Source of the DNA: Candidatus Krumholzibacteriia bacterium
Lineage (GTDB): Bacteria; Krumholzibacteriota; Krumholzibacteriia; LZORAL124-64-63
DNA length: 64,000 bases
Direction of reading: 5' to 3'
NCBI GenBank assembly: GCA_030592845.1
Contig: JAUVII010000002.1
Span: forward strand, 581 to 64,580
The position numbers were made by a program, and so were the translations under genes. The notes under the pieces were generated by a model. That model was not told the DNA's origin, did not search any database, and worked only from the letters and a program-made list of their open reading frames with translations. Each line of letters opens with the position of its first letter. The stretch's first letter is position 1. Positions 3,342-48,550 of this stretch are shown piece after piece.

Positions 3342-3980
3342 TCAATCCAGGGATCGTTCGAACCAGGATTGCCCCTGGAGGTCACCACGGCGGAAACCGA
3401 GCCGTTTCAGGTAGTCCCGGTGGGTAGCCCCGGCCGCCGGGCTGAGCATCTTGTTGATACCCCGCTCACGCCAGATTGGTGCCATCTCATCCAGAAAAAA
3501 CCGCGCGCAGCGCAGGTCGCGATAGATGGGAAGGACATAGTCCAGATGGATGCGGACTTCGTCCCCGTTTTCTTCGTACACCACCAGTCCCGCCGGGTTG
3601 ACGTTTCTGAGGATGAAGGTCACCCGGGGGTTCCTCAACGATTCAAGGCTGAAATCGGGAAAAAACCGCCCGATGTCGGCCTCGTGAAAGGTGAGGAAGG
3701 TGTGCAGATAATTGTTGTCCAAGCGACTGATGGACATCAGGGAGAAATAGTCCCGGGTCCGGCTCATTCTCCCCAGGTAATAGATATTGACCAGCACGAT
3801 GAACCCGTTGACCACCAGCACGGGATAAGCACCCACGAACCAGCCGTAAACCGCAAACGCCAGGGCGCCGGACAGATTGATCCAGCGAAGCCTGGCCAGC
3901 GAACTCATCATCAAGGAGATGGCCACCAGAAGAGATCCGGCATAGCCGATGAATTCCGTCCATTCCATCCAGGAAAGCAC
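3342..3980 (-). CDS. Membrane protein: YgjV-like 3-TM N-terminus plus GNAT-like C-terminal domain
   Basis: Three hydrophobic helices in the first ~70 aa. The C-terminus ends ...HRDYLKRLGFRRG, reminiscent of an acetyltransferase fold. GTG 3980 lies 8 nt after GGAGG and 3 nt after the MFS stop. Confidence 0.55.
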   Translation of the reverse strand: MLSWMEWTEFIGYAGSLLVAISLMMSSLARLRWINLSGALAFAVYGWFVGAYPVLVVNGFIVLVNIYYLGRMSRTRDYFSLMSISRLDNNYLHTFLTFHEADIGRFFPDFSLESLRNPRVTFILRNVNPAGLVVYEENGDEVRIHLDYVLPIYRDLRCARFFLDEMAPIWRERGINKMLSPAAGATHRDYLKRLGFRRGDLQGQSWFERSLD

Positions 3981-3983
3981 TTG

Positions 3984-5162
3984 TCACACCTCCTGTTCGG
4001 GAACGCGGATCTGCAGGCAGATGAAGAACCCGCCCAGCGCGATGGCCCCGGCCAGCACGAACACCCACTGGTGGCCGTATTTCTCCCAGATGAAACCGGA
4101 CAGTACGGGAAGGGTCATGGCCACCACGTGATCGATGGTGATACCCAAAGAAATCGTGGGCGTGATGTCGGCGGGATCGACGGCGATTTTTTTAAGGTAG
4201 GTGGTGCGCGCCACCCGCAGGGCGAACAGGATATGGTCGAGCATGTAGGCGCCATAAAGGATTCGCAAGTCCCAGGGCGCCGAAAAAACATCCGAGGCAA
4301 AGGCGTAGACCATGCACACCACCAGCAGCATGATCTCGTCGGTGGCCAGGACCTTGCGTTCCCCCAGCCAGTCGATCACGTCCCCCAACAGCGGACGCAA
4401 CAGTACCCCCAAAGCCGAGGCCGCGAAATACAGCAGGGCGATGGTGGACACCGGCACATCGTGAAGTGAAACCAGAACCCAGGTGCCGAAAACCATAAAG
4501 ATCTGTTTGCGGATACCGAACAGGGCGCTGATGGCGTAGAAGATGTGGTACTCGCGCCGGTAGACCATCCTGCGGCTGGGCGGATCCTCCTTGCCGATGG
4601 TCAGGCGCATGTAAAAAACGCCGGCGATGGTGGCGCTGACGCCCCCCACCAGATAAAAAAGGTCATACCGATCGCCCACGAATTTGGCCAAAAGCCAGAC
4701 AGTGCCCACGCCCAGGATGACGCCCATGTTTCGCGCCCCGCCCAGCTGCCCCAGGCGTCGCCCCTCGCTCCCGCGTTTCGCCAGTTTGAGGCCGAGAGGA
4801 CCTTCCACCGCGAAAATGATGTGATCACCCATGGACCAGACCACGATCCATATCACCAGCAGCGCCAGGCCGGGGGAGAGAAAAGCCAGCCCCAGGGCGC
4901 CCGCCGCGGTGGCGACCATGGCCAGGGCGGCGATCCGGCTTTCACGCATGTGGGCCAGCAGGAATCCCATCACGACAAAAATCAGGAAGCCCGGCAGCTC
5001 CCGGGGAAACTCAAGCCAGCCGCGGTTCCCGGCATCGAACCCGTGCACCTCGGACAGGTAGTTGTTGAGGGTGGAAAGGAAAATGCCGCTGGTGGCGCCG
5101 AAAAACATGGTGGCCAGCAGAACACGGCGGAAATCTCCGGTCACTTTACGGGCGATGTTCAA
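3984..5162 (-). CDS. MFS transporter
   Basis: About 12 predicted TM helices and MFS-like loop motifs. The TTG start overlaps the malQ stop (TTGA), suggesting translational coupling. Confidence 0.8.
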   Translation of the reverse strand: MNIARKVTGDFRRVLLATMFFGATSGIFLSTLNNYLSEVHGFDAGNRGWLEFPRELPGFLIFVVMGFLLAHMRESRIAALAMVATAAGALGLAFLSPGLALLVIWIVVWSMGDHIIFAVEGPLGLKLAKRGSEGRRLGQLGGARNMGVILGVGTVWLLAKFVGDRYDLFYLVGGVSATIAGVFYMRLTIGKEDPPSRRMVYRREYHIFYAISALFGIRKQIFMVFGTWVLVSLHDVPVSTIALLYFAASALGVLLRPLLGDVIDWLGERKVLATDEIMLLVVCMVYAFASDVFSAPWDLRILYGAYMLDHILFALRVARTTYLKKIAVDPADITPTISLGITIDHVVAMTLPVLSGFIWEKYGHQWVFVLAGAIALGGFFICLQIRVPEQEV

Positions 5163-6733
5163 TTGAATTGCCCTTCTTCCGGAGGGGTCGGATCCTCGCG
5201 GCGCGGCGCGGCCTGATCCGGCCTGCGCCGGTACAACCAGGTGAACCGGGCCAACCTGTCCGCGGCGGGATCGAGAAAAGCATCACCCGACATGCGCCAG
5301 TTCCAGTTGCCCTTGCCTTCACCCGGCAGATTCATGCGCGCTTCGCGGCCCAGTCCCAGCACATCCTGCATCGTCGCGATAAAAGTGTGGGCGGGCGACA
5401 TCATGCCCAGGCGGATCAGGGTCCAATGCGGTTCGTCGATGGCACACCCGGTGTATTCGGCCACCAGTTCCTTCGCGGCCGAATCGGCCAGGTGATTCCA
5501 CCACCCGATGGTCGGGTCGTTGTCGTGGGTTCCGGAATAGACCACGCAGTTTTTGATATGTTCGTGGGGAAGGAACACATTGTCCGGACCGCTCCAGGCA
5601 AACTGGAGTACCTTCATGCCGGGCAGGTTGAAATCATCGCGCAGTTTTTCAACGGCGGGGGTGATGACCCCCAGATCCTCGGCGATCACCGGAAGCGTCC
5701 CTCCCAGTTCGCGGCTCAGGGTCGCAAAGAATTCCGATCCCGGACCGGAAACCCATTTACCGTTCTCGGCCGTCTTTTCGTCGGCGGGCACTTCCCAGTA
5801 GGCCTCGAAACCCCGGAAATGGTCGATGCGCACCAGGTCCACCGTTTCCAGGCAGGCCTTGACCCGGTCAACCCACCACCGGTAGTCCTCCTGTTTGAAC
5901 CGAGCCCAGTCGTAAAGGGGATTGCCCCAGAGCTGGCCGGTTTTGCTGAAGTAGTCCGGCGGCACTCCGGCCACGCTGGTCGGCAGGCCCTTGGCATCCA
6001 GTTGGAACAGTTCGGGCCGGGCCCACACATCGCTGCTGTCGTGGGCCACGAAGATCGGAATGTCTCCGATCATCCTTATCCCCCGGGCCATGGCAAAGGC
6101 CTTGAGGTCGGACCACTGATGAAAAAACAGCCACTGCCGGAATTTGTGGGCCGATATGCGTTTGTCCAGCCGACGCAAAGCCCCGGCCAAAGCCTCGGGT
6201 TTGCGGTCCCTCAGTTCCGCGGGCCACTCGGTCCAGGGTTGGCCTTCCTGGTCTTCCTTCAAGGCCATGAATAAAGAAAAGTCCTCCAGCCAGGCCTGGG
6301 CGGCGCACCAACCGTCGAATTCTTTCCAGTGTGTTTGCGACGCCCGTTCCAGGAACACGGACCATGCCCGGTCCAGCATCTTCGTTTTCCAGGTGATGAC
6401 GGGTCCAAAATCAACCCGCTGTTCATCGAATCCGGGGCGACCCGACAGGTCGTTCGGAAGCAGCCAGCCTTCACGCTCCAGGCGGTCGAGACTGATCAAA
6501 AGGGGATTGCCCGCAAAGGCTGACAAGGTCTGGTAGGGGGAATCACCGAAACTCGTCGGCCCCAGGGGAAGGACCTGCCACAGGCTTTGCCCGCATTTTT
6601 CCAGCCAGTCCACGAAACGATAGGCGGAATCGCCCAGGTCACCGATGCCGTCCGGACCCGGCAGACAGGTGGGATGCAACAGGACGCCGCTGGCGCGGGG
6701 AAAAAGGGATTGGTTATTTGAAACCGCAGTCAT
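5159..6733 (-). CDS. malQ: 4-alpha-glucanotransferase (GH77 amylomaltase)
   Basis: GH77-like blocks: RASGVLLHPTCLPG, WGNPLYDW, IRIDHFRGF, IAEDLG, GTHDNDP. ATG 6733 follows GGAGAAAAC. The upstream 116 codons of the track ORF look non-coding. Confidence 0.9.
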   Translation of the reverse strand: MTAVSNNQSLFPRASGVLLHPTCLPGPDGIGDLGDSAYRFVDWLEKCGQSLWQVLPLGPTSFGDSPYQTLSAFAGNPLLISLDRLEREGWLLPNDLSGRPGFDEQRVDFGPVITWKTKMLDRAWSVFLERASQTHWKEFDGWCAAQAWLEDFSLFMALKEDQEGQPWTEWPAELRDRKPEALAGALRRLDKRISAHKFRQWLFFHQWSDLKAFAMARGIRMIGDIPIFVAHDSSDVWARPELFQLDAKGLPTSVAGVPPDYFSKTGQLWGNPLYDWARFKQEDYRWWVDRVKACLETVDLVRIDHFRGFEAYWEVPADEKTAENGKWVSGPGSEFFATLSRELGGTLPVIAEDLGVITPAVEKLRDDFNLPGMKVLQFAWSGPDNVFLPHEHIKNCVVYSGTHDNDPTIGWWNHLADSAAKELVAEYTGCAIDEPHWTLIRLGMMSPAHTFIATMQDVLGLGREARMNLPGEGKGNWNWRMSGDAFLDPAADRLARFTWLYRRRPDQAAPRREDPTPPEEGQFN

Positions 6734-6950
6734 GTTTTCTCCACGGAAATGGTTGGGCATCGGAATGGACCTACAAAGTAAGTGTGAGCCCCTCTTCCAG
6801 TCCAGAGCAACCTGTACACCTGCAGTCGGGCGGGCAATCCCGGTTCTGTTTCCTTTTTCATCACCCGACTTCTTTGTCCGTTGAGGCTGGTTGTGATTGT
6901 CGCAGCGTGATAAACTATCCACCCAGGACCGAGGATGAACCCTATCAATA

Positions 6951-8097
6951 ATGAGCATAAACATGATCCGCCACTTAAAGGGAGCAAACCGCTGGCTTGA
7001 GACCCGGGAAAAATGGGTGGTGCCTGTGGTGGCAACACTGCTGTTCTGCTTGCTGGTCATATATGTGTTTAACCGGGACATCCTTGACTTCGGGCCTTAT
7101 GACGGCAAGACCTACGAGTCGCTGGGCTGACGGGCCGCACAGGCGGACCACCTTCTATCTGAAGGCAACTTCGGCCACGCCTATTGGTCACCGAGTTGGG
7201 TAGTGACCATCGGTACGATGTATAAGATTTTTGGGCGGAATCCCCTTGTGATCCGAATACTGCTGGCCTTGTGTGCCGTGGGTGGAGGATTCCTGGTCAA
7301 CCTCTGGACACGGCGCCGGGGTTTGCCCCCACTGGCCTGCCTGCTCGCGATGGTTCTTACTGTATCAGGCCTCCTCGTTTTCCGTTCCACTGCCTATTGC
7401 CACTATGAGACTTTCCTGGGGTTCGGGTTGATGGTTTTCTCCTGGTTGGTTTTTCGCGGGAACCACTTGCTGGACCTGGGGAGACCTGTCGGATACGCGC
7501 TGTTGGTCGCGGCCGGCCTGTTATTCGGTTTTTTGACCCTCGTTGGTGGTGGTGTTCAGCCTGCTGGTCATCGGGGGTTGGACGGCACGCAACATGGTGA
7601 TCTTCGGAGAAATTATCCCGCTGACCAGCAATGGCGGCATCAATCTCTACATAGCCAACAATCCGGATGCAACCGGCGGATACATGAATGTGGAAGCCGG
7701 AGGCCATCCGTTTTATGACTCGGCGCATTTCAGGCGGCTTGCCCTGACCTACATGTTGGAGAATCCCGGACTGACGGCCCTGCGTATGTTGAAGAAAGCC
7801 ATCATGTTTTTTAATCCGCATTATGGGGATCAGGTTCCGGGGGTATTTCTCTTTGCCGTGGCCTTGGTGCGTTTTTTGCGAAAGAAGGCATGGCTGCATG
7901 ATGTTGAGGGTCTGTGGTTCATCACGATGCCGTTCGTTTTCATGACTATCCACTCTGTCTTCCACTATGAATTTCGTTACATCTTGCCGGTTTGGCCGAT
8001 GCTGGTCTGGGTTGGCGCGCATGCTTTCACGGGCTGGAACGTCAAGGAGTCAGAAGCCGCTCCAACACCGGCATGGGACCGGGCAGCCAACGATTAG
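6951..8097 (+). pseudogene. GT-C fold (PMT_2/ArnT-like, GT39-type) membrane glycosyltransferase, disrupted
   Basis: One reading frame is recoverable from three pieces: 6951-7127, an in-frame TGA at 7128-7130, then 7131 to ~7540, then a shift to the frame of ORF 7543..8097. Family-like blocks include YESLG, NFGHAYWSPSWVVTIGTMYKIFG and NGGINLYIANNPDATGGY. The span is one nt longer than a multiple of 3, and the ~382-aa product is shorter than typical family members. Confidence 0.55.
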
Positions 8098-8788
8098 CCC
8101 CACCCGGCTTTCCGGCGGCGGAATCCACCAACTGACCAAGGAGTTCACGCAGGACAGCCAGGCCGGTTGGAATGTGATCCAGGAAGGGATGCTTGCCCTT
8201 GACGTGACCCAGATACCCGTAGGCGCCCAGGGCCTGCATGATTCGCTGCAGACCCGCGGCCAGGGCCATGGCCCGGATATCCGCGGAAGTGAGAGAACCC
8301 GCGCTTGCGGCGGACGCAGCAAACCGGTCCAGAAGTTCAGCGCGTAATTCCCCACCGAGCGCGACGTAAGGATCCCATAGCAGCGACACCAGATCGTAGG
8401 TCAAGGGGCCCATCCGCATGCCCTGGAAGTCGACCAGGCGGATCCCATCATCCTGTAGATGGATATTTTGGGACTGGAAATCGCGATGGATCAAGATCCG
8501 GGGCTGGGCGGCCACCGTTTTGGCCAGGGAGTGGAATTCCCCGTCGATATCCCCAAGATCGACGGATGCCAGACCCATGTGCCCCATTAGGAAATTTTTC
8601 CTGAAATAATCCGTCTCCCAACGCAGGGATTCATAATCCAGGCAGCGGTCCACGGCCAGGGGGCACCGAATCCGTGCCTCGCTGGTGGCTGACTGCAGGT
8701 TCAGAAGATGGTCCACGGTCCGTCGATAGGCGTCGGCGACGGGTTCGGAGGCGAGGCCTGTAGGAATATCAGCCCAGCCCCCAGTCAA
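8042..8788 (-). pseudogene. Truncated paralogue of the AmgK (anomeric MurNAc/GlcNAc kinase) C-terminal half
   Basis: About 70% identical by eye to the last ~245 aa of the 15213..16898 protein (shared IHRDFQSQNIHLQD, LVDFQGMR, LQRIMQALGAYG). It lacks the nucleotide-binding lobe and the whole MurU domain. It begins at a TTG 4 nt after the upstream gene's stop. Confidence 0.7.
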
Positions 8789-8791
8789 TAT

Positions 8792-11700
8792 CTACTTTAC
8801 CAGAGCCATCTTCTGGACCTTGACCTCACCGCCGGTCCGGGCCTCGTAGAAATAGATACCGGAAGAGACACTGCCTCCCTGGTTGTCGGTACCGTCCCAG
8901 ACGATGGTCTGGTCCGCACCCGCGGGCCGGTTGCCATCGATCATGGTCTTGACCAACTGTCCGCGCACATTGTAGATGCAAAGCTTCAGATGACCAGCGG
9001 TCGGCATCGAATACTTGATCGTCGTGCTGGGGTTGAATGGGTTCGGATAATGGTTTGTCTGGAAGGTAATGCCGGGCAGGACCGGGGATACATCCTGGGG
9101 GTCACCCGCGACACCAAAGTACAACAGAACGTCCCTCAGCAATTGAGCACGGCCCGGCCGAAGGTTGCCGGCAGCCGCGGGATCCGTATAGACATACATC
9201 AGATCCACGGGCATGGAGATGACCCTGCTGCCACCGGCCAAGAGGTTCAAGGCGGCAGCGGAATAGGAGTACTGCCCACCCGTGGGATTATCGAATTCCG
9301 CGATCCGAAGAGCGGTTCCTAACACATTTACTCCGTCAAAGGAGTTGACATCGTAACAACCGCCGAAGGCAATCCAGGTCTGCAGGCTGCCGTTGAATAC
9401 CGGATTACCCGCAGTGACCCTGACCAGTGGGGTGGTCTGGTTGCCGATAAGCGGCCGGACATCGTGGGTCACCGTTGAAACACCCATATAGCCCTCAAGA
9501 AAAGCCTGGCCCTCGGATCCGGACTGGGCCAGATCGCTCGCCAGACCATCACCGGTCAGGAAGATGTCCTTGCCGCCCTGATCGAGCCAACCTGTCAATG
9601 TCGCGACATCGTTACCGGCATCATTGTTGAAGTCGCCGTTGGCCAGGGTGAAGATGCCCATTGCACCGCTGGTGTAGAGGATATCATCGTAGTCCGTCAG
9701 CAGGATGTGGCTGGCACGACCTCCAATTCCGTTACCAACGTCTGAGTCGGGACCGTTGACGAAATACACGTCGTAGTCCTCACCGACCAGCAGGCCGATG
9801 TTGTTCAGTGCGGAATGCCATTCATTCTCGCCGCCATAGTCGGCGAAGTCGTTGATGAACAGGATACCCGGCTGCTCGTAGCCACCGAAACCATTGTCAC
9901 GGATACTCGGCAGGGCACGGACCACAAACCTGGGGTCATAGTTCAGGGGATTCCCGAAACCGGTGCTGAACCCGGTAGTGTCTGCGGGTAGCAGCGCGGT
10001 CTGGGGATCGCTTCCCCCCCCCCCACCTATGGCGTCGGTAGCGGAGATGAAATAATGCAGTACGTCGCCCGGAAACAGGAAGCCTGTGTCGGGCAGGTCG
10101 AAGGCCCACTTGCCCGGAGTCCAGGGTTCGTTGCCGCGGATGGCCTTCATGCCAGGCACTGTACCCATGTCAGGCAGACCAGCGGTACGATACGGATCGA
10201 AGACAGGGTTGGCATCCAGGAGGTAGTGCAGTTCGGGATCACCGTCGAATTCGGCCCCGGCCCGGACAGGAACGAGGGTGAAGATTATGGAATCACCGGG
10301 ATCGTTACGCAGTTCCAAGGCTCTCGAGATGTTTTTTGCCGCATCGAAGCGAACACTGTGCGAACCGGGATCGCCCATGTCGATCGAACCGCGGTCGGGA
10401 AAGTTATCCTGGGCAATGTCAATCGTACGAGAGGACATACCCGGACCAAGGTAGGGAAAAATCTTGACGGTCACGTTGTCGAAGAAGGGTGCCGGGTAAC
10501 CATCGTTACCGATCCAGCCCCAGATCCAACCCAGTTCGGCGACGCTCAAGGCCACCTGGACTTCGTCGCGGCCGGGGTTCATCAGTTCGGTGATGTCGCC
10601 GCTGGGGGATTTGTAGTTCGGACCACCGTATCCAACAGTGTTGTAGTTCCGCCAGCCCTGATCCGTGATGATCTGAACGCCATTTCCGGCGGACCCGTCG
10701 GTATCAGCCGAACGGACATTCCAGATCCAGAAGATACCGGGAGAGTCAGAGGACAGGTCTTCGTGTACATAGACCTCAAAACTCAGGAAGATGCCGTCGT
10801 AATCCGGACCACCGCCGCCGTCCTTGGGGTGCGGCCAGGCCATGACGGGCGATTCAATCACGTTGTGGATGTATTCCGACCCGGCGATGAGACCACCAGT
10901 GGTGTTCACGATGTAGCCGCCTGGGCCGTAGCACCAGTTGATGCAGTCACTACCGCCGGTGCCGGGCACGACGACGCCGTCGTCGATGAAGGCGACCTGC
11001 GGGGTTGAGTTGGTTCTACAGGGATCGGCATCCACCAGGCCCGTCCAGATCCTGGAAAAGTCGCCGACACCATCGGGGATCCCGAGGTTCCAGATACCGA
11101 AATCGTCAGGATCGCCGCCGTGCTCGAAGTCCTCGAAGAAGTCCGCGTCAAATGCACCATTGACGATGTTGACGTTGATGTCGTCAACCTGGCAAGCGCC
11201 CGCGGTCGGCCACCGGCAACCCTCATCGGACCAGCCGCCATCGGACTTGAAGCGGAAGTACACCGCGATATCCGTGCCGTCCATGTACTCCTGGGGCAGG
11301 TAGGTAACCGAACCCTCGACAGCCACCGTGCCGGTCCCGTCCCAGCTCTGGATGTCGCCAAGGCGCTGACCACGGTACCTGTAGCTCAGATAGGTGTAAT
11401 CGTACTCCGGCTCACAGTCGTGCATCAGGGTGGCCGTAACGGTAACGGTGGAGCTGATGTCGGGGTTGGGCACGGTCTGGCGGAACTCGATGAGATCGTG
11501 CCAACCGTTGCCGTAACCACCAGCGACGTCGTTGGTATCGCAGGCGTCAAAATTGATATCGCCACACCAAGCCGCGTGGTTGGCGGGATTGGGCTGGTTG
11601 TAGGTGCTGACATTCCAGTGGGAAACTGTCGGCTGGGTGACGTCGTAGTGGGTCCAGCCGTTCCAGGCAGGATCCCCGTTGGCGTCCTCAAAGTCGCCGT

Positions 11701-11923
11701 CATAGTACGGCTCAAGGCCGCCGTCGCGGGGATCGGAATTGTTGGTCGGGTCGTTGGAGGCGGCCATCAGATTGATGGTGTCAAGCTCGGCCTTGTTGAA
11801 ATGGACGCTTCCGCCATGGATTATTGAGTTGCCCAGAGTCATTTGCGGGAGTTCCCCTGCGAATGAAAAAAGAGCAAACACCACGGCAAGCGCAAAACAA
11901 GCGAACATGGTGAGTTTCTTCAT
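8792..11923 (-). CDS. Large secreted protein with T9SS/FlgD-Ig-like C-terminal sorting domain, function unknown
   Basis: Signal peptide MKKLTMFACFALAVVFALFSFA (ATG 11923 after AGGGGGAAA). The C-terminal ~80 aa (YPNPFNPSTTIKY...IYNVRGQLV...WDGTDNQGGSVSSGIYFYEA...KMALVK) matches the Por_Secre_tail/FlgD_ig pattern. I saw no HExxH or other catalytic motif. Confidence 0.8.
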   Translation of the reverse strand: MKKLTMFACFALAVVFALFSFAGELPQMTLGNSIIHGGSVHFNKAELDTINLMAASNDPTNNSDPRDGGLEPYYDGDFEDANGDPAWNGWTHYDVTQPTVSHWNVSTYNQPNPANHAAWCGDINFDACDTNDVAGGYGNGWHDLIEFRQTVPNPDISSTVTVTATLMHDCEPEYDYTYLSYRYRGQRLGDIQSWDGTGTVAVEGSVTYLPQEYMDGTDIAVYFRFKSDGGWSDEGCRWPTAGACQVDDINVNIVNGAFDADFFEDFEHGGDPDDFGIWNLGIPDGVGDFSRIWTGLVDADPCRTNSTPQVAFIDDGVVVPGTGGSDCINWCYGPGGYIVNTTGGLIAGSEYIHNVIESPVMAWPHPKDGGGGPDYDGIFLSFEVYVHEDLSSDSPGIFWIWNVRSADTDGSAGNGVQIITDQGWRNYNTVGYGGPNYKSPSGDITELMNPGRDEVQVALSVAELGWIWGWIGNDGYPAPFFDNVTVKIFPYLGPGMSSRTIDIAQDNFPDRGSIDMGDPGSHSVRFDAAKNISRALELRNDPGDSIIFTLVPVRAGAEFDGDPELHYLLDANPVFDPYRTAGLPDMGTVPGMKAIRGNEPWTPGKWAFDLPDTGFLFPGDVLHYFISATDAIGGGGGSDPQTALLPADTTGFSTGFGNPLNYDPRFVVRALPSIRDNGFGGYEQPGILFINDFADYGGENEWHSALNNIGLLVGEDYDVYFVNGPDSDVGNGIGGRASHILLTDYDDILYTSGAMGIFTLANGDFNNDAGNDVATLTGWLDQGGKDIFLTGDGLASDLAQSGSEGQAFLEGYMGVSTVTHDVRPLIGNQTTPLVRVTAGNPVFNGSLQTWIAFGGCYDVNSFDGVNVLGTALRIAEFDNPTGGQYSYSAAALNLLAGGSRVISMPVDLMYVYTDPAAAGNLRPGRAQLLRDVLLYFGVAGDPQDVSPVLPGITFQTNHYPNPFNPSTTIKYSMPTAGHLKLCIYNVRGQLVKTMIDGNRPAGADQTIVWDGTDNQGGSVSSGIYFYEARTGGEVKVQKMALVK
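10014..10024 (-). repeat. G11 homopolymer (C11 on the + strand) inside the T9SS cargo gene
   Basis: Read directly from the sequence. It encodes the GGGGG in ...TDAIGGGGGSDPQT... and is currently in frame. Confidence 0.9.
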
Positions 11924-12218
11924 TGGTTTCCCCCTAGTGGATTTTGCGCAAATATTCCTCCAGTATTTTCCAACTAAATTTATTTCCATTTCCTCCAATG
12001 TCTTATTCTATCATTGTTGAACGCCCACTGTCAATATAGCAGCCCGTTTTTTGGGGACCGATGTGGCGATTACAGGCATTTCACCAAGCTCGACCACATC
12101 CGCGTGACAGACCATCTTACAGATTTCGATAATTATCTCTCAATTATTTACAGGTCATCAGGTTCCGTGATACAGTCAGGTCGGTCGTCACGGGATACTG
12201 CAGAATCCAGGAGAAACC

Positions 12219-15194
12219 ATGATCGGCAAGACATTCTCCCACTACACTATCGTCGAGAAACTGGGCGAAGGTGGAATGGGCGTTGTGTATCTGGCCGAGG
12301 ACACCAAACTTCTACGTAAGGTCGCTCTCAAATTCCTGCCTGAAAATGCCGTCCACGAGGCTGACAAGGTCCGCTTTCTGCAGGAAGCGCGGGCAGCCGC
12401 GGCGCTCAATCATCCCAATGTCTGTACGATTCACGAGATCGATGAGGTGGACGACCATGTCTTCATTTCCATGGAGTATGTGCCTGGTCAAACACTTCAA
12501 GATTTGATCGATTCCGGTGAACTGGATCGCGACAAGGCTGTGGAACTTGTAGTCCAGATCGCCTCCGGACTGAAGCTCGCCCATGAAGCCGGCATCGTGC
12601 ATCGCGACATCAAGCCCGCCAACATCATCGTCACTCCCGACGGGCAGGCCAAGATCATGGATTTCGGTCTGGCCAAGTTCATGAATCTCGCCCGAATCAC
12701 CAAGTCCCACACCACCCTCGGTACGGCGCCCTACATGTCGCCCGAACAGGTCCAGGGCAGTACGGTAGATCACCGTTCGGATATCTGGTCGTTGGGGGTG
12801 TGCCTGTACCAGATGGTTTCGGGACAACTGCCATTCGCCGAAGAACACAGCCTGGCGCTTATGTATTCCATCGCCAACCAGGAACCGGAGGCGCTGAGCG
12901 AGGTTTGCAAAGAGACTCCTGCGGCTCTTTCGGCCACCGTGAATTTGATGTTGACCAAGAAAGTGGATGAGCGTTACCAGAGCTGCGAGCAGTTGCTGGA
13001 CGATTTGAACCAAAGCCGAGTTAGACCGGCACCGTTGAGCTCCGGTAGGCGACGATTGATGTATGCAGGGGCAATTTTCCTGATTCTACTGGGTTTTCTG
13101 GCCAGTAAGATGTGGCCCACTCGGGAACCAACGACCCTGCAGGATACCGCCGCGAACAAGGTCGCGGTTTTGCCCTTCACCTACAAAGGCAGCGCGGAAA
13201 ACGAATGGCTCGCCGAGGGTATGATGGATCTGCTGATCAACACCATGGACGGTTTGAACGGCACCCGTACCGTCGATGCCAGTGCGGTCATCCGGGTGGT
13301 CCGGCAGGTTGGCGACTCGGCCACCCGGATCGACGGCTACGAGGTGGCGTCGCAATTGGCGGTGAACCGTTTCATTCTCGGTGAAATCATTGAGATCGGA
13401 GGAGGCCTGCGTATCAGCGCGGGATTATACGATGCTACGAATCGTCAGTCCCCTCCGATTCGTGGTGCTGCCGATGGGAAAGTTGCCGGTCTTTTTGCAC
13501 TGGCGGACGATCTGGCAGCCCAATTGATGGCGGGGTCCCAGACCGAAGGTGATCAGTCCGCGGCCAAGGCGGCAATCACCCGCACCAGCTTGCCGACGGT
13601 GAAATTATATATGGAGGGATTGCGACTGTATCGGAACAAGGATTACAAAGGCTCCAAGGCTACTTTCACTCGTGTTGTGGAACAGGACAGCCTGTTTGCC
13701 CTTGGCTGGTATGCGTTGTCGTGGTTCGGCATGGGCTCCAGCGAGGCCAGGAACGCGGCCAACAGGGCCTATGAGCTGAGCGACGATCTTCCACCTCGCG
13801 AACGCCGTCTGATAGCGGGTGCACATGCTCTTTTATTGGGTCGCCACGATGAAGCAGAAAAACACTTCAAGGCGGTCCTCGAGATCTACCCCCAGGATAT
13901 TTGGGCCCTGGAATCGATAATGGGGCTGTACTGGTCGACCAATGCCTTCCGCGGTCGTTCCATGTACGAGGCGATCAGTTACGATCGCCGTATCAAGGAA
14001 CTTGATCCTGAAGCGGGCAACAATTTTTATCTCAACTGGTACGCCATCGACATGCAGGATATGGAGTTCTTGGCGGAAAATGATTTTTGTGGTGAAGGTG
14101 CTTACCAGATGTGCCTCTGGAACACGTTGGTGCAGGCATACGACTCCTTGTCAGAATCGATCATGGATGAACTCAAGGATGTTTACAAAACCATCGCCGT
14201 TGACTACGGGCTGCCAGAGGTTCCAACCACCTATCCCGAGACCCCCTACTTGGTTGTCTCCGCACATGGATTCCACGATACCATCTTGATGAACTTCGAT
14301 GCGCTGCGGCCCAACCGGGACATTTCCTTGAAACTGGCCCACATGTTGACCGACCCTTCCGTGATTCCTCTTGCCCGCCAGAAGGGATGGTGGCGAATGG
14401 CCTACCTGTCAGCGGGTCGCGGAAGTGTGCAGGCATCTCAAGCATATCTGGACTCATTTCTCACCCTGGACAAGCCTCTGGAAGCGGAAGCACCACAATT
14501 CATTCCGGTTGCAGAGATGTATTCACGGGCGCAGCTGTTGGTTCTGCCTTTTCTGGCCGCAGCGCCCGCTGAACAGGACTCGATGCGTGCCGTACTCGAG
14601 CAATATGATCCATCCTCCGTTCCATATCTTTCCGGCTGGACGGAAAACGGAAACCACAGGTTGATTCGTTTGCACCTGCTGGGCCTGCTGACCTGTCAGC
14701 TCGGGGATCACGCCGCAGCCCTCGAGTACGCCGACCAGTTGCACCGCCTGGAACCGACCGAAATCACAGGAACCTCCGCGGTGGATCTTGCACTCGGTAT
14801 CCGGGCACGGGTGGCCCGGAACGAAGGTCGCGTACAGGAGGCCCTGACCATCATGGAATCAGCTCCCCGGCACGTTACCTTTGGCAATCATGAAATGTCT
14901 GATTTCCTGGAACAGTCACAGGAGCGTTACTTCCGGGGCGAACTTCTGGCCAGCCTGGGCCAGCACGATCAGGCCCTGCGGTGGTTCGAATCGACCCGGA
15001 ATGTCGCCTCGCTTCTTTTCAATACCATCCGCTTCTACAAAATGGCCCAATGCCACGACGCGCTCGGCCACCCGGCCGAAGCCATCGAGAACTATCGCCA
15101 GTTCATCCGGGTGTGGGCCGATTGCGACCCCGAACAGAAACCGCTGGTTGATGACGCCCGGGCACGCCTGGCGCAAATCGAATCCTCCGGGTAG
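12219..15194 (+). CDS. Ser/Thr protein kinase with TM anchor, periplasmic domain and TPR repeats
   Basis: Hanks-kinase motifs are present: GEGGMGVVYLA, VALK, HRDIKPANI, DFGLAK, APYMSPEQ. TM segment LMYAGAIFLILLGFLA. A VAVLPF-type domain and TPR-like C-terminus follow. ATG follows GGAGAAACC. Confidence 0.9.
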   Translation: MIGKTFSHYTIVEKLGEGGMGVVYLAEDTKLLRKVALKFLPENAVHEADKVRFLQEARAAAALNHPNVCTIHEIDEVDDHVFISMEYVPGQTLQDLIDSGELDRDKAVELVVQIASGLKLAHEAGIVHRDIKPANIIVTPDGQAKIMDFGLAKFMNLARITKSHTTLGTAPYMSPEQVQGSTVDHRSDIWSLGVCLYQMVSGQLPFAEEHSLALMYSIANQEPEALSEVCKETPAALSATVNLMLTKKVDERYQSCEQLLDDLNQSRVRPAPLSSGRRRLMYAGAIFLILLGFLASKMWPTREPTTLQDTAANKVAVLPFTYKGSAENEWLAEGMMDLLINTMDGLNGTRTVDASAVIRVVRQVGDSATRIDGYEVASQLAVNRFILGEIIEIGGGLRISAGLYDATNRQSPPIRGAADGKVAGLFALADDLAAQLMAGSQTEGDQSAAKAAITRTSLPTVKLYMEGLRLYRNKDYKGSKATFTRVVEQDSLFALGWYALSWFGMGSSEARNAANRAYELSDDLPPRERRLIAGAHALLLGRHDEAEKHFKAVLEIYPQDIWALESIMGLYWSTNAFRGRSMYEAISYDRRIKELDPEAGNNFYLNWYAIDMQDMEFLAENDFCGEGAYQMCLWNTLVQAYDSLSESIMDELKDVYKTIAVDYGLPEVPTTYPETPYLVVSAHGFHDTILMNFDALRPNRDISLKLAHMLTDPSVIPLARQKGWWRMAYLSAGRGSVQASQAYLDSFLTLDKPLEAEAPQFIPVAEMYSRAQLLVLPFLAAAPAEQDSMRAVLEQYDPSSVPYLSGWTENGNHRLIRLHLLGLLTCQLGDHAAALEYADQLHRLEPTEITGTSAVDLALGIRARVARNEGRVQEALTIMESAPRHVTFGNHEMSDFLEQSQERYFRGELLASLGQHDQALRWFESTRNVASLLFNTIRFYKMAQCHDALGHPAEAIENYRQFIRVWADCDPEQKPLVDDARARLAQIESSG

Positions 15195-15212
15195 CGACTC
15201 AACCGATTTATT

Positions 15213-16898
15213 TTAATCCAGAAGCCGCTCCAACATGGGCATGGAACCGGGCACCCAGCGGCCTGCCGCCTCCTTTTCCTCCCCCAGTTCACCCAGGATC
15301 TCCCGCAGGACAGTCAGGCCGGCTGGGATGTGATCGAGAAAGGACCGCTTGCCCTTGACGTGCCCCAGGAATCCGTAGGCGCCCAAGGCCTGCATGATAC
15401 GCTGCAACCCCGCGGCCAGGGACATGGCCCGGATATCCTCGGTACTGAAGGTCCCCGAGGGATCGGAAGCAAACCGGTCCAGAAGTCCGGCGCGCAATTC
15501 CGCAGGAAGGGCGACGTAGGGATCCAGAAGCAGTGACACCAGGTCGTAGGTAAGCGGGCCCAACCGCATGCCCTGAAAATCCACCAGACGGACCCTGCCA
15601 TCCTGCAGATGAATGTTCTGTGACTGGAAATCGCGATGGATCAACACTTGGGGTTGGGCGGCCACGGTCACGGCCAGGGCCTGGAATTCCCCGTCGAGTT
15701 CCGCCAGGTCGGCCAGGTCGGCCAGGTTCAGGCCCAGGTGTCCAGCCAGGAAGTGTTCCCTGAAATAATCCGTCTCCCATCGCAGGGCTTCATAATCCAG
15801 ACAGCGGTCCACCGCGAGATGGCACTCCGACCGGGCCGCGTCCGTGGCAGCTTGCATGTCCAGCAATTGGTCCACGGTCAGTCGGTAGGCTTCGGCGACG
15901 GATTCGGACTCGAGGCCGTCGCTTTGGACCAGGGAAAACAGGCTATCCGGACCCAGATCCTCCATCAGGACCGCATGTTCAGCCTCGGCAACGGACAGCA
16001 GGGAGGGTCCACCCAGGTTCCGGTTGGCGAGAAAACCCGCGATCTCTGTGAAGCGGTCGAACTCCTCGTCTTCCGGGGGGCTGATCATGGCTACGGCCGA
16101 CCAATCCCCCACACCCATCCTCCAGAACCTGCGGTCCGAACCGTGGCCGGTGATGCGGTCCAGACTCATCCCCTGGCAACCGGAATCACCTGCGGGCTGC
16201 GCGTGGAGGTACCGAGCCAGGGTCCCCAGATCGCTCCAGTTGAAATCGCCCGGAGCAAACCCCCTGACGCTTTCCGGGGCGACAGCCAAAGCACGCACCA
16301 GCGGATCGATAAGGGAGGAAAAGCCAGGCCCGATATCGGCCAAAATCCTTGAGGAGAAGACACCGATCCCCGTGTAAGTTAGATTCCGGGTGTCACCAGT
16401 GAAATTGCCGCCCGGCTGGCCGGCGATGCTCACGATACGGCCCTCGGCGGACAAGACAACCGAGTTGACCGCAGGCCAGTCCGTCAGCAGCAAAGTGGCC
16501 AGGGAACCGGACCGCAGATGCTCCGCAAACAGCTCTTTCATATCCGCGTCACAAAGGACGTCGCCGTTGTGGAGCAGAAAATTTTCCGCGGCGCCCAAAA
16601 AGTCACGGGCTCCATGCAGGGCGCCGCCGGTACCCAGGATTTTGGCTTCCGGGAACAGGATAAAACGGTTGCTGTCCGGCCTGTCGCCGACATGGGCTTC
16701 CACCATGGCACCCAAATGATGGGTATTGACGCCGATTTCCCTGATCCCGGTCCGGTCGAAACCATCAATGATTAGGTCCAAAAGATGGCGCCCACCCACT
16801 GGCAGCAGGGGTTTCGGGATATGGTCGGTGACCGGCTCCAGCCGTGTACCGTAACCGGCGGCCAGGATCATGCCCCGCAGGCCGCCGCGGTCATTCAT
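15213..16898 (-). CDS. Fused MurU-like nucleotidyltransferase + AmgK-like sugar kinase (UDP-MurNAc salvage)
   Basis: N-terminus ILAAGYGTRLEPVTDHIPKPLLPV is a sugar-1-P nucleotidyltransferase signature. C-terminus IHRDFQSQNIHL...LVDFQG is the APH/AmgK catalytic loop. The 561-aa length equals the sum of separate MurU and AmgK. The start overlaps the namZ stop (ATGAATGA). Confidence 0.8.
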   Translation of the reverse strand: MNDRGGLRGMILAAGYGTRLEPVTDHIPKPLLPVGGRHLLDLIIDGFDRTGIREIGVNTHHLGAMVEAHVGDRPDSNRFILFPEAKILGTGGALHGARDFLGAAENFLLHNGDVLCDADMKELFAEHLRSGSLATLLLTDWPAVNSVVLSAEGRIVSIAGQPGGNFTGDTRNLTYTGIGVFSSRILADIGPGFSSLIDPLVRALAVAPESVRGFAPGDFNWSDLGTLARYLHAQPAGDSGCQGMSLDRITGHGSDRRFWRMGVGDWSAVAMISPPEDEEFDRFTEIAGFLANRNLGGPSLLSVAEAEHAVLMEDLGPDSLFSLVQSDGLESESVAEAYRLTVDQLLDMQAATDAARSECHLAVDRCLDYEALRWETDYFREHFLAGHLGLNLADLADLAELDGEFQALAVTVAAQPQVLIHRDFQSQNIHLQDGRVRLVDFQGMRLGPLTYDLVSLLLDPYVALPAELRAGLLDRFASDPSGTFSTEDIRAMSLAAGLQRIMQALGAYGFLGHVKGKRSFLDHIPAGLTVLREILGELGEEKEAAGRWVPGSMPMLERLLD

Positions 16899-48394: not shown

Positions 48395-48550
48395 GATGTC
48401 TAAGCTGTTCCTACTGCCAGACACAATTTCGGAGGCACAACCAATGATATTGGTGACCGGCTGCAGAAAAACCTCCCCACTGTCCTAAACAAGCCCAACA
48501 TGCTACCCTGATTTCCCCCAACACTACGACTCACCCCGAAAGGCCTCCTT

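Follow-up and report, generated by a model that had tools for sequence, protein, structure and literature searches.

In Escherichia coli, prophage e14 and phage 21 integrate at icd and supply a replacement 3′ end of that gene, by means of a site-specific integrase and a short att core and as coherent elements. Core genes beside variable loci can also carry hitchhiking divergence, as do gnd and galF beside the O-antigen clusters and the flanks of capsule loci; O-antigen and capsule loci usually exchange a single functional class, polysaccharide genes, by clean double crossover. A further kind of exchange, C-terminal displacement by homology-facilitated illegitimate recombination (HFIR), which leaves orphan 3′ fragments, has been proposed (PMC5361080 and papers cited there) for rhs, for contact-dependent inhibition (CDI) loci and for the effector–immunity arrays of the Vibrio cholerae type VI secretion system (T6SS). 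Here, a similar arrangement is described from a 64,000-nt stretch of DNA (‘the window’) of a Candidatus Krumholzibacteriia bacterium (assembly GCA_030592845.1, contig JAUVII010000002.1, positions 581 to 64,580), in which a gene for a MurU-AmgK-like fusion protein (hereafter amgK) is accompanied by a second, shorter copy of its 3′ end. Comparison with related genomes suggests that this short open reading frame (ORF) is probably the orphan 3′ end of a second amgK allele, a scar of cargo exchange at a recombination hot spot between amgK and a GH77 gene.

The window is contig C63 of a metagenome-assembled genome (MAG), labelled G000 in the comparisons, of 3.7 Mb in 363 contigs (82% complete, 4.3% contamination). 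Comparison sets comprised seven other genomes of the genus and 81 genomes of the family (Krumholzibacteriota), with L044 (GCA_030591085.1), a close relative, as the empty-site reference; the protein search set held 5.8 billion proteins, and JGI contigs were scanned too. Duplication of the amgK 3′ end, noted in a preliminary description of the window, was confirmed, and that account was accurate apart from two small corrections. Features of the locus, with coordinates in the window, are as follows.

6810-15214, no strand: insert specific to G000 relative to the L044 empty site, 8.4 kb
6939-8097, plus strand: GT-C-like membrane glycosyltransferase gene, decayed (in-frame TGA, frameshift)
8042-8788, minus strand: amgK′, putative orphan 3′ fragment of the MurU-AmgK-like gene; 248-codon open frame, homology at 8051-8760
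8759-8791, minus strand: junction of 33 nt of unique sequence between the cargo TAG (8792-8794) and the start of amgK homology at ~8760; presumed illegitimate joint
8792-11998, minus strand: cargo gene of the type IX secretion system (T9SS)-sorted kind, 1068 aa, with FlgD_ig/Por_Secre_tail C-terminal domain
11999-12218, no strand: divergent intergenic region with promoter-like sites, conserved with G005:C374
12219-15194, plus strand: STK-TPR gene, 991 aa, for a TPR-repeat Ser/Thr protein kinase (STK); runs towards full-length amgK and ends 18 nt short of it
15213-16898, minus strand: full-length MurU-AmgK-like fusion, 561 aa; repeat copy at 15219-15930

The short copy at 8051-8760 aligned with 15219-15930, both on the minus strand, in MAFFT alignment and in repeat finding, at 77–82% nt identity per block (four collinear blocks at 78–88% from the repeat finder), bearing out the earlier claim of homologous copies in the same orientation. 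Codon alignment gave 78.1% nt and 71.9% aa identity over 231 codons, and BLASTP 167/239 identical residues (70%, E = 9e-114), in agreement with the ~70% protein identity that had been judged by eye. Homology was confined to codons 327–561 (the last ~238 codons) of the full gene, downstream of which the short copy lies in the same orientation, and ended within a few bases of both stop codons, again as described. Three indels separate the copies (12, 6 and 9 nt), all of them in frame, and the short copy is free of stops. The 9-nt indel corresponds to one extra unit of a G000-specific tandem repeat found in the full copy, and in neither the short copy nor six relatives; the repeat, noted earlier at 15702-15728, was found at 15703-15727 (2.8 copies, 100% match). 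The 5′ edge of the short copy had been said to abut the stop of the cargo gene: this holds for the ORF, the TTG of which (8788) lies 3 nt from the TAG, but homology begins only at ~8760, with 33 nt of unique sequence between. Exactly two genes separate the copies, as stated previously, namely the T9SS cargo gene, 8792-11998(-), and the STK-TPR gene, 12219-15194(+), and both are intact. No further amgK copy was present in the whole 3.7-Mb MAG; each of the seven other genus genomes had a single copy, and the sister L043 and relatives L044 and L045 were without the short one.

The full-length gene is the last of a conserved GT9-GT4-NamZ operon, with a start/stop overlap with NamZ. Its product combines an NTP_transferase domain (9–235) with an APH-type kinase domain (249–477), which covers positions 5–230 of the APH profile, a complete kinase fold. 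The best curated NCBIfam families for its two halves were MurU and AmgK, and its best PDB matches were MurU structures (8hhd, 4y7t). Scores lay far under the equivalog cut-offs: 124 bits against 250 for the MurU model NF045761 and, for the AmgK model NF045759, 82.9 bits for the full gene and 64.6 for the short copy against 550, although AmgK was still the best-scoring kinase family. ‘MurU-AmgK-like’ accordingly denotes the best family matches and not an established substrate specificity. Salvage of N-acetylmuramic acid (MurNAc) by the AmgK-MurU route is described from Pseudomonas (PMC5371407), and NamZ from B. subtilis (PMC8054146). The present locus resembles such a pathway in that the halves of the full gene match MurU and AmgK best and in that the gene directly follows one for NamZ; it differs from Pseudomonas AmgK-MurU in that both activities would reside in one fused polypeptide, and in those low scores.

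The short copy encodes the kinase C-lobe only, with its catalytic loop (HRDFQSQN) and DFQG motif, and neither N-lobe nor MurU domain; its matches cover positions 111–230 of 239 in Pfam APH and 115–303 of 324 in NCBIfam AmgK. The only start of the ORF is the TTG 3 nt past the cargo TAG, in the same frame as the cargo gene, from which it is split by the TAG and one codon, and neither an ATG nor an evident ribosome-binding site was seen for it in the junction sequence. No stand-alone family of short AmgK C-lobe proteins was found among the 5.8 billion proteins: of six short matches inspected on their contigs, five were frameshift-split fusion genes from long-read assemblies, and the sixth lay too near a contig end to tell. 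The possibility, raised in advance, that the short copy might belong to a conserved stand-alone gene family therefore found no support in the protein search. In all versions of the event considered below, the short copy would be non-functional as a stand-alone fragment, its open frame probably reflecting a recent cut-off.

Divergence between the two G000 copies amounted to 0.54 synonymous substitutions per synonymous site (dS), with a ratio of non-synonymous to synonymous substitution (dN/dS) of 0.34; compared with any relative, the short copy showed dN/dS of 0.21–0.34, with ortholog pairs at 0.14–0.37. This dS exceeds the same-gene distance between G000 and L043 (0.28–0.35) and is near the distances between G000 and L044 or L045 (0.58–0.73). 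In an alignment of 32 family sequences, the short copy kept 48/50 invariant residues and differed at 4/98 near-invariant positions, all deviations being conservative (L/I, L/M, V/I, F/Y) and no worse than those of bona fide full-length genes. By our own reckoning, a neutral fragment drifting for half of this distance (~0.27) would be expected to carry several stops and many changes at invariant sites. Because there are no stops, and only two conservative changes at 50 invariant sites, the short copy probably diverged inside a working full-length gene and was cut off recently; on the same grounds an old segmental duplication, earlier held to be equally possible, is disfavoured. Moreover, in a donor search for which the query was given chimeric length, so that full-length fusions could compete, ~20 full-length fusions from other assemblies were closer to the short copy (71–76% aa) than the resident gene is (70%). 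The short copy would appear to come from a different allele and not to be a recent duplicate of the resident.

Across the family the order GT9-GT4-NamZ-(MurU-AmgK), then GH77-MFS, is conserved, and comparison of gene orders shows amgK–GH77 adjacency to be ancestral in this Krumholzibacteriota family, the interval being refilled with different cargo per lineage. A comparison of synteny had been proposed in the preliminary description, and cassette-free L044 does show amgK next to GH77, the empty site amounting to 95 bp between flank homologies; the gap in L081 also looks minimal, with amgK and GH77 matches ~90 nt apart. Elsewhere the site holds one gene of 201–229 aa (L045-47), one convergent gene of 561 aa (L043), ~9.8 kb encoding a CHAT-TPR protein and a T9SS cargo protein (G001), a LuxR-PAS gene, a BNR-repeat gene with T9SS-type sorting tail and a TIG protein (G004), a sucrose synthase/SPS/S6PP/fructokinase cluster (G005), Wzy_C (G015, L034), or an S8 peptidase and a T9SS cargo gene (L033, L035). 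The Wzy_C gene of some relatives is not in the window. In four genus MAGs the contig ends ≤720 bp from the amgK stop. Two G005 contigs, C65 and C223, both break off within amgK, and their ends share 249 nt with 5 mismatches (98% identity); a second amgK copy in that genome was considered and rejected, the overlap being attributed to strain heterogeneity and an assembly-graph fork.

Several relatives possess, between amgK and GH77, a conserved 26-nt motif (CAATGATATTGGTGATAGGCTGCAAG) with a GC-rich, terminator-like hairpin ahead of it; the pair marks insertion boundaries (L044:7230-7295; L043:1940-1997 and 3900-3962; L045:11730-11790; L024 (G004):9265-9300). G000 retains only the last ~7 nt of the motif, at ~6825, and has a 3-mismatch copy elsewhere in the window, at 48441-48465. 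It may serve as promoter or operator, or be prone to recombination; a sigma-54 promoter was considered, but on reading of the sequence the spacing is off by one. Compared with L044, the right edge of the G000 insert is the amgK stop codon, and the left edge falls in the 26-nt motif, ~90 nt upstream of the GH77 ATG (6733). The GH77 (4-alpha-glucanotransferase) ORF, 5159-7081(-), 640 aa, is over-extended: relatives and conserved upstream sequence place the start at ATG 6733 (524 aa), and the extra ~115 codons run into lineage-specific DNA. Downstream of the locus in two relatives, a ThyX (Thy1) gene (L045:18974-21043; L046:10613-12682) contains an intein with an HNH-type homing-endonuclease signature, giving a 689-aa product.

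A second case of the architecture came from L043. This genome is L044-like at both sides of the site, with 96.7% identity over 482 nt on the GH77 side, starting exactly at the 26-nt motif, and 93–96% over the first 400 nt aligned (NamZ 3′ end and amgK start), and the 3′ two-thirds of its amgK is 79–88% identical to that of L044 per 200-nt window. After the imported tail come its own diverged copy of the hairpin and motif, the 561-aa gene and then the resident motif copy; because the resident copy was retained beside the imported one, a ~65-nt diverged direct repeat brackets the insert. From this layout, L043 appears to be G000 in miniature, with an import anchored in amgK, a far joint upstream of resident sequence and a duplicated flank. 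The far joint of L043 is in the intergenic region, that of G000 at codon ~327 of amgK.

Synonymous divergence showed a peak at the hot spot. Between L044 and L045, baseline dS was 0.21 in NamZ, 0.24 in MFS and 0.22 in GH77 (codons 151–end), compared with 0.57, 0.69 and 0.90 along amgK (codons 1–260, 261–330 and 331–end, respectively) and 0.52 in GH77 codons 1–150, an approximately four-fold peak. Since dS climbs from 0.21 in NamZ to 0.90 at the amgK 3′ end in so close a pair, the amgK tail travels with the cargo: the 3′ part of amgK and, less so, the 5′ part of GH77 behave as a homology arm imported with it. Import of tails in this way explains why otherwise close genomes carry tails differing by 20–24% nt, and the two G000 copies (dS 0.54) fall inside the allelic range of the hot spot. 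The tree of the amgK 5′ part grouped G000 with G001 (100/99) and G002 with G003 and G004 (95/96), whereas that of the 3′ part was a star, in keeping with imported tails.

The full-length amgK of G000 is itself mosaic. A tract of ~450 nt (codons ~261–410) is 95–97% identical to L043:967-1420 (dS 0.06 over codons 261–326), compared with 80–91% for the rest of the gene, and is best read as a recent homologous-recombination tract common to the G000 and L043 lineages. At informative sites beyond this tract, the full copy agreed with L043 at 48, the short copy with L043 at 38, and the two copies with each other at 33. The signature of a reciprocal (Campbell) chimera was rejected: a 240-nt tract in which the full copy matched L043 gave way to near-equal three-way patterns, with no clean reciprocal switch.

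Read in the amgK direction, the insert begins with the convergent STK gene, continues with the T9SS cargo gene and the short amgK copy, and includes the GT-C gene on the opposite strand; the two-gene ‘cassette’ between the amgK copies is composite, its modules having histories of their own. In G005 the STK has an ortholog of 91% aa identity, NamZ and MurU-AmgK of the same genome pair being 71–81% identical, and the intergenic region 11999-12218 with the 5′ part of the STK gene matched G005:C374 (1–995) at 89.5% nt, against 77–81% for core DNA between the genomes, which suggests recent lateral transfer of an STK module. Conservation with G005:C374 breaks exactly at the cargo start codon; G005 has the STK without the cargo gene. 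There the STK adjoins a different gene, for an MscS-like channel with a cNMP-binding domain, and kinases of this type number in the dozens across the genus, with as many as 40 matches in G007. For the cargo protein, 61 family matches were counted in G000, the closest paralog (79% aa) being on C359, and its homology to six paralogs ended at 8792-8793 in four and earlier in two (8838, 8877), never passing the stop. These paralogs, of ~1050–1090 aa, form a greatly expanded family in the genus, with 26–67 matches in congeners beside the 61 of G000 (paralog contigs C359, C105, C207 and C245), and often follow one another in tandem, up to five at a time (G007:C60; G001:C103 and C8).

The GT-C gene, with weak PMT/Glyco_transf_22 matches, is broken twice, by a TGA in frame at 7128-7130 and by a frameshift in a T-run near 7540; it converges with amgK′, the 3′ ends of the two overlapping by 56 nt. 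No close homolog was found among the 81 family genomes (best 40% aa) or in the loci of relatives, and its use as a donor marker was rejected for that reason. The 221-aa ORF at 7357-8022 on the minus strand is an antisense shadow of this gene. Every ORF of 6810-15214 was identified, with no integrase or other recombinase, excisionase or transposase among them, in keeping with the absence of an integrase reported earlier; the flanks are conserved core genes, no tRNA lies in the window, and repeat finding gave no att-like or other bracketing repeats beyond the ~720-nt, 78% identical amgK segment. Composition, a check suggested in the preliminary description, was mildly atypical for the insert (99th percentile of tetranucleotide distance; GC 0.569 against 0.591 for the window), and was rejected as a diagnostic for being no more than that.

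The hot spot with its divergence peak, the well-preserved allelic fragment, the lack of recombinase and att sites and the parallel in L043 are the observations on which a scenario can be built, the crossover types and the direction of exchange being inferred. In the G000 lineage, an incoming fragment carrying an amgK 3′ allele, the STK gene and the T9SS cargo gene would have been anchored by homologous recombination inside amgK, while an illegitimate joint connected its other end to the resident amgK at codon ~327. The active gene would thereby gain the incoming tail, and the resident tail would be pushed downstream together with its old neighbour GT-C, losing the N-lobe, the MurU domain and the start. 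Overall this would be C-terminal displacement by HFIR, with one homologous and one illegitimate crossover. A mirror version, anchored in GH77 and with amgK′ and GT-C as the incoming piece, would be mechanistically equally possible, and the layout would be no different after a Campbell-type single crossover with a circular fragment. The tail with STK and cargo is favoured as the newcomer because the STK region has 89.5% nt identity to G005 against 77–81% for the core, and the short tail with GT-C as the displaced resident because GT-C is already decaying, with two lesions, and because the resident copy in L043 is the distal one.

Several points weigh against this reconstruction. HFIR is read from the architecture, and the crossover point at the far joint (8759-8791; 33 nt, unique, with no repeat) is a presumed one; the joint comes from a contig of an 82%-complete MAG. 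Neither a donor nor a ‘before’ genome was found, nothing more than 76% identical to the short copy being present in 5.8 billion proteins or in the JGI contigs. Phylogenies of the amgK 3′ halves, proposed in the preliminary description, were built, but the nucleotide and protein trees were both star-like and placed neither copy, and approximately unbiased (AU) tests rejected none of the groupings short+full, short+G001 and full+G001; with such trees, the short tail is the favoured rather than the established resident. By raw identity it is the tail of the full copy, not the short one, that is nearer to the sister L043. Finally, a selected stand-alone gene would likewise be expected to show an intact frame, here of 248 codons, and a dN/dS of ~0.3.

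That last expectation belongs to an older history, in which the amgK 3′ half was duplicated within the genome, genes were gained later between the copies, and the short copy was kept by selection as a stand-alone C-lobe protein (a pseudokinase, substrate-binding subunit or regulator of the salvage pathway). The open 248-codon frame, dN/dS of ~0.25–0.34 and intact catalytic-loop and DFG-like motifs would fit it, as would the failure to reject sisterhood of the two G000 copies (AU p = 0.34) and the fact that the resident copy has the highest full-length nt identity to the short copy of all sequences compared (78%). Such a history is nevertheless unlikely: no stand-alone family exists in the protein set, the short matches inspected being split or contig-truncated fusion genes; the ATP-binding N-lobe is gone, and the TTG start lies 3 nt past a stop with no visible ribosome-binding site; and no second copy occurs in the other genus genomes, L043, L044 or L045, while a dS of 0.54, above that of the G000–L043 split (0.28–0.35), would require repeated losses. 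A site-specific genomic island, in which an integrative element brought its own 3′ end to the 3′ part of amgK and later lost the integrase, would account for direct repeats of a gene 3′ end that bracket foreign genes and leave the gene intact, and for the somewhat atypical composition of the insert (99th percentile of tetranucleotide distance, GC 0.569 against 0.591). Yet integrase, excisionase, transposase and tRNA were all not found, the ‘cassette’ consists of modules of separate histories, and the repeat is ~720 nt long and 22% diverged, compared with the short, near-identical duplications of the att type. Moreover, the displaced fragment is not at the far border, where it had been placed initially, since the decayed GT-C gene (6939-8097) separates it from the conserved GH77 flank; and other lineages fill the site with unrelated, non-mobile cargo, one of them with a ~65-nt flank repeat at a different position. 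What survives of the island-like layout first proposed is an insertion within or beside the 3′ part of amgK that supplied a new 3′ end and stranded another, as indicated by the empty site, the varied cargo and the divergence peak; the island character, for which integrase, tRNA, att-like repeats and unity of the insert are all lacking, does not stand, and an element of this sort is very unlikely.

An artefact of assembly, in which the contig joins two co-occurring congeners at 8759-8791 and the short copy is the end of the other organism’s full-length amgK, is improbable to the same degree. It draws on the source of the sequence, a MAG of 82% completeness and 4.3% contamination, on the breaks near the locus in assemblies of several congeners, and on the species-level dS between the copies. 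However, the joint runs from mid-gene to 33 nt of unique sequence after an unrelated gene, with no shared repeat to mislead an assembler; neither side of the joint, nor an amgK 5′ half that would match the short copy, occurs on another contig of the bin; each flank keeps the order of a single contig in relatives, at equal identity (86.3% and 85.0% to L044); and L043, an independent assembly, has an analogous flank repeat.

Displacement of a resident amgK tail during cargo exchange, the account preferred here, shares with the rhs, CDI and T6SS cases a conserved 5′ region that serves as homology anchor, incoming DNA that brings a new 3′ end and downstream genes, an old 3′ end moved downstream as a promoterless fragment, the absence of an integrase, and modules that vary by lineage at one site. 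Unlike those cases, the anchored gene is a metabolic (peptidoglycan-salvage-like) enzyme and not a polymorphic toxin; the tails are alleles of equivalent function, where those of the toxin loci are alternative domains, with nothing to suggest a stored alternative function; and the cargo consists of T9SS substrates, kinases or regulators, sugar-metabolism genes and envelope glycosyltransferases, with one orphan instead of an array. As with e14 and phage 21 at icd, the target is intact with a substituted, diverged 3′ end and the displaced 3′ fragment forms a direct repeat beyond inserted DNA, but here recombinase, att core and coherent element are all absent, and the stranded fragment lies inside the variable region. 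As at gnd and galF, synonymous divergence peaks locally in the bordering core genes and their phylogenies are incongruent, such peaks arising in core genes that flank cargo-exchange loci because alleles are imported with the locus; in contrast to gnd and galF, the cargo is functionally heterogeneous, and an out-of-register crossover left flank duplicates in two lineages. Most likely, then, this is a known kind of recombination scar, involving no new mobile element, mechanism or gene family. A more far-reaching version, in which the amgK tail is the portable homology arm of an integrase-free cassette exchange, with cargo modules (T9SS substrates, kinases and regulators, envelope enzymes) circulating in Krumholzibacteriota together with their own amgK 3′ allele and stranded tails kept as silent alleles or internal recombination sites for later excision and re-assortment, is quite unlikely.

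For annotation, the case is a warning that the 248-aa ‘phosphotransferase’ is probably a gene fragment. The locus is also a non-toxin example of a several-fold peak of synonymous divergence around a cargo site. An out-of-register far joint of the kind proposed would leave a dated scar, and scars of this sort may mark recombination hot spots in MAGs and explain contig breaks and apparent partial paralogs. More broadly, the case would show how accessory genes can enter an uncultured lineage of the Fibrobacteres–Chlorobi–Bacteroidetes (FCB) group without mobile-element machinery, via homologous recombination in a conserved operon-terminal gene.

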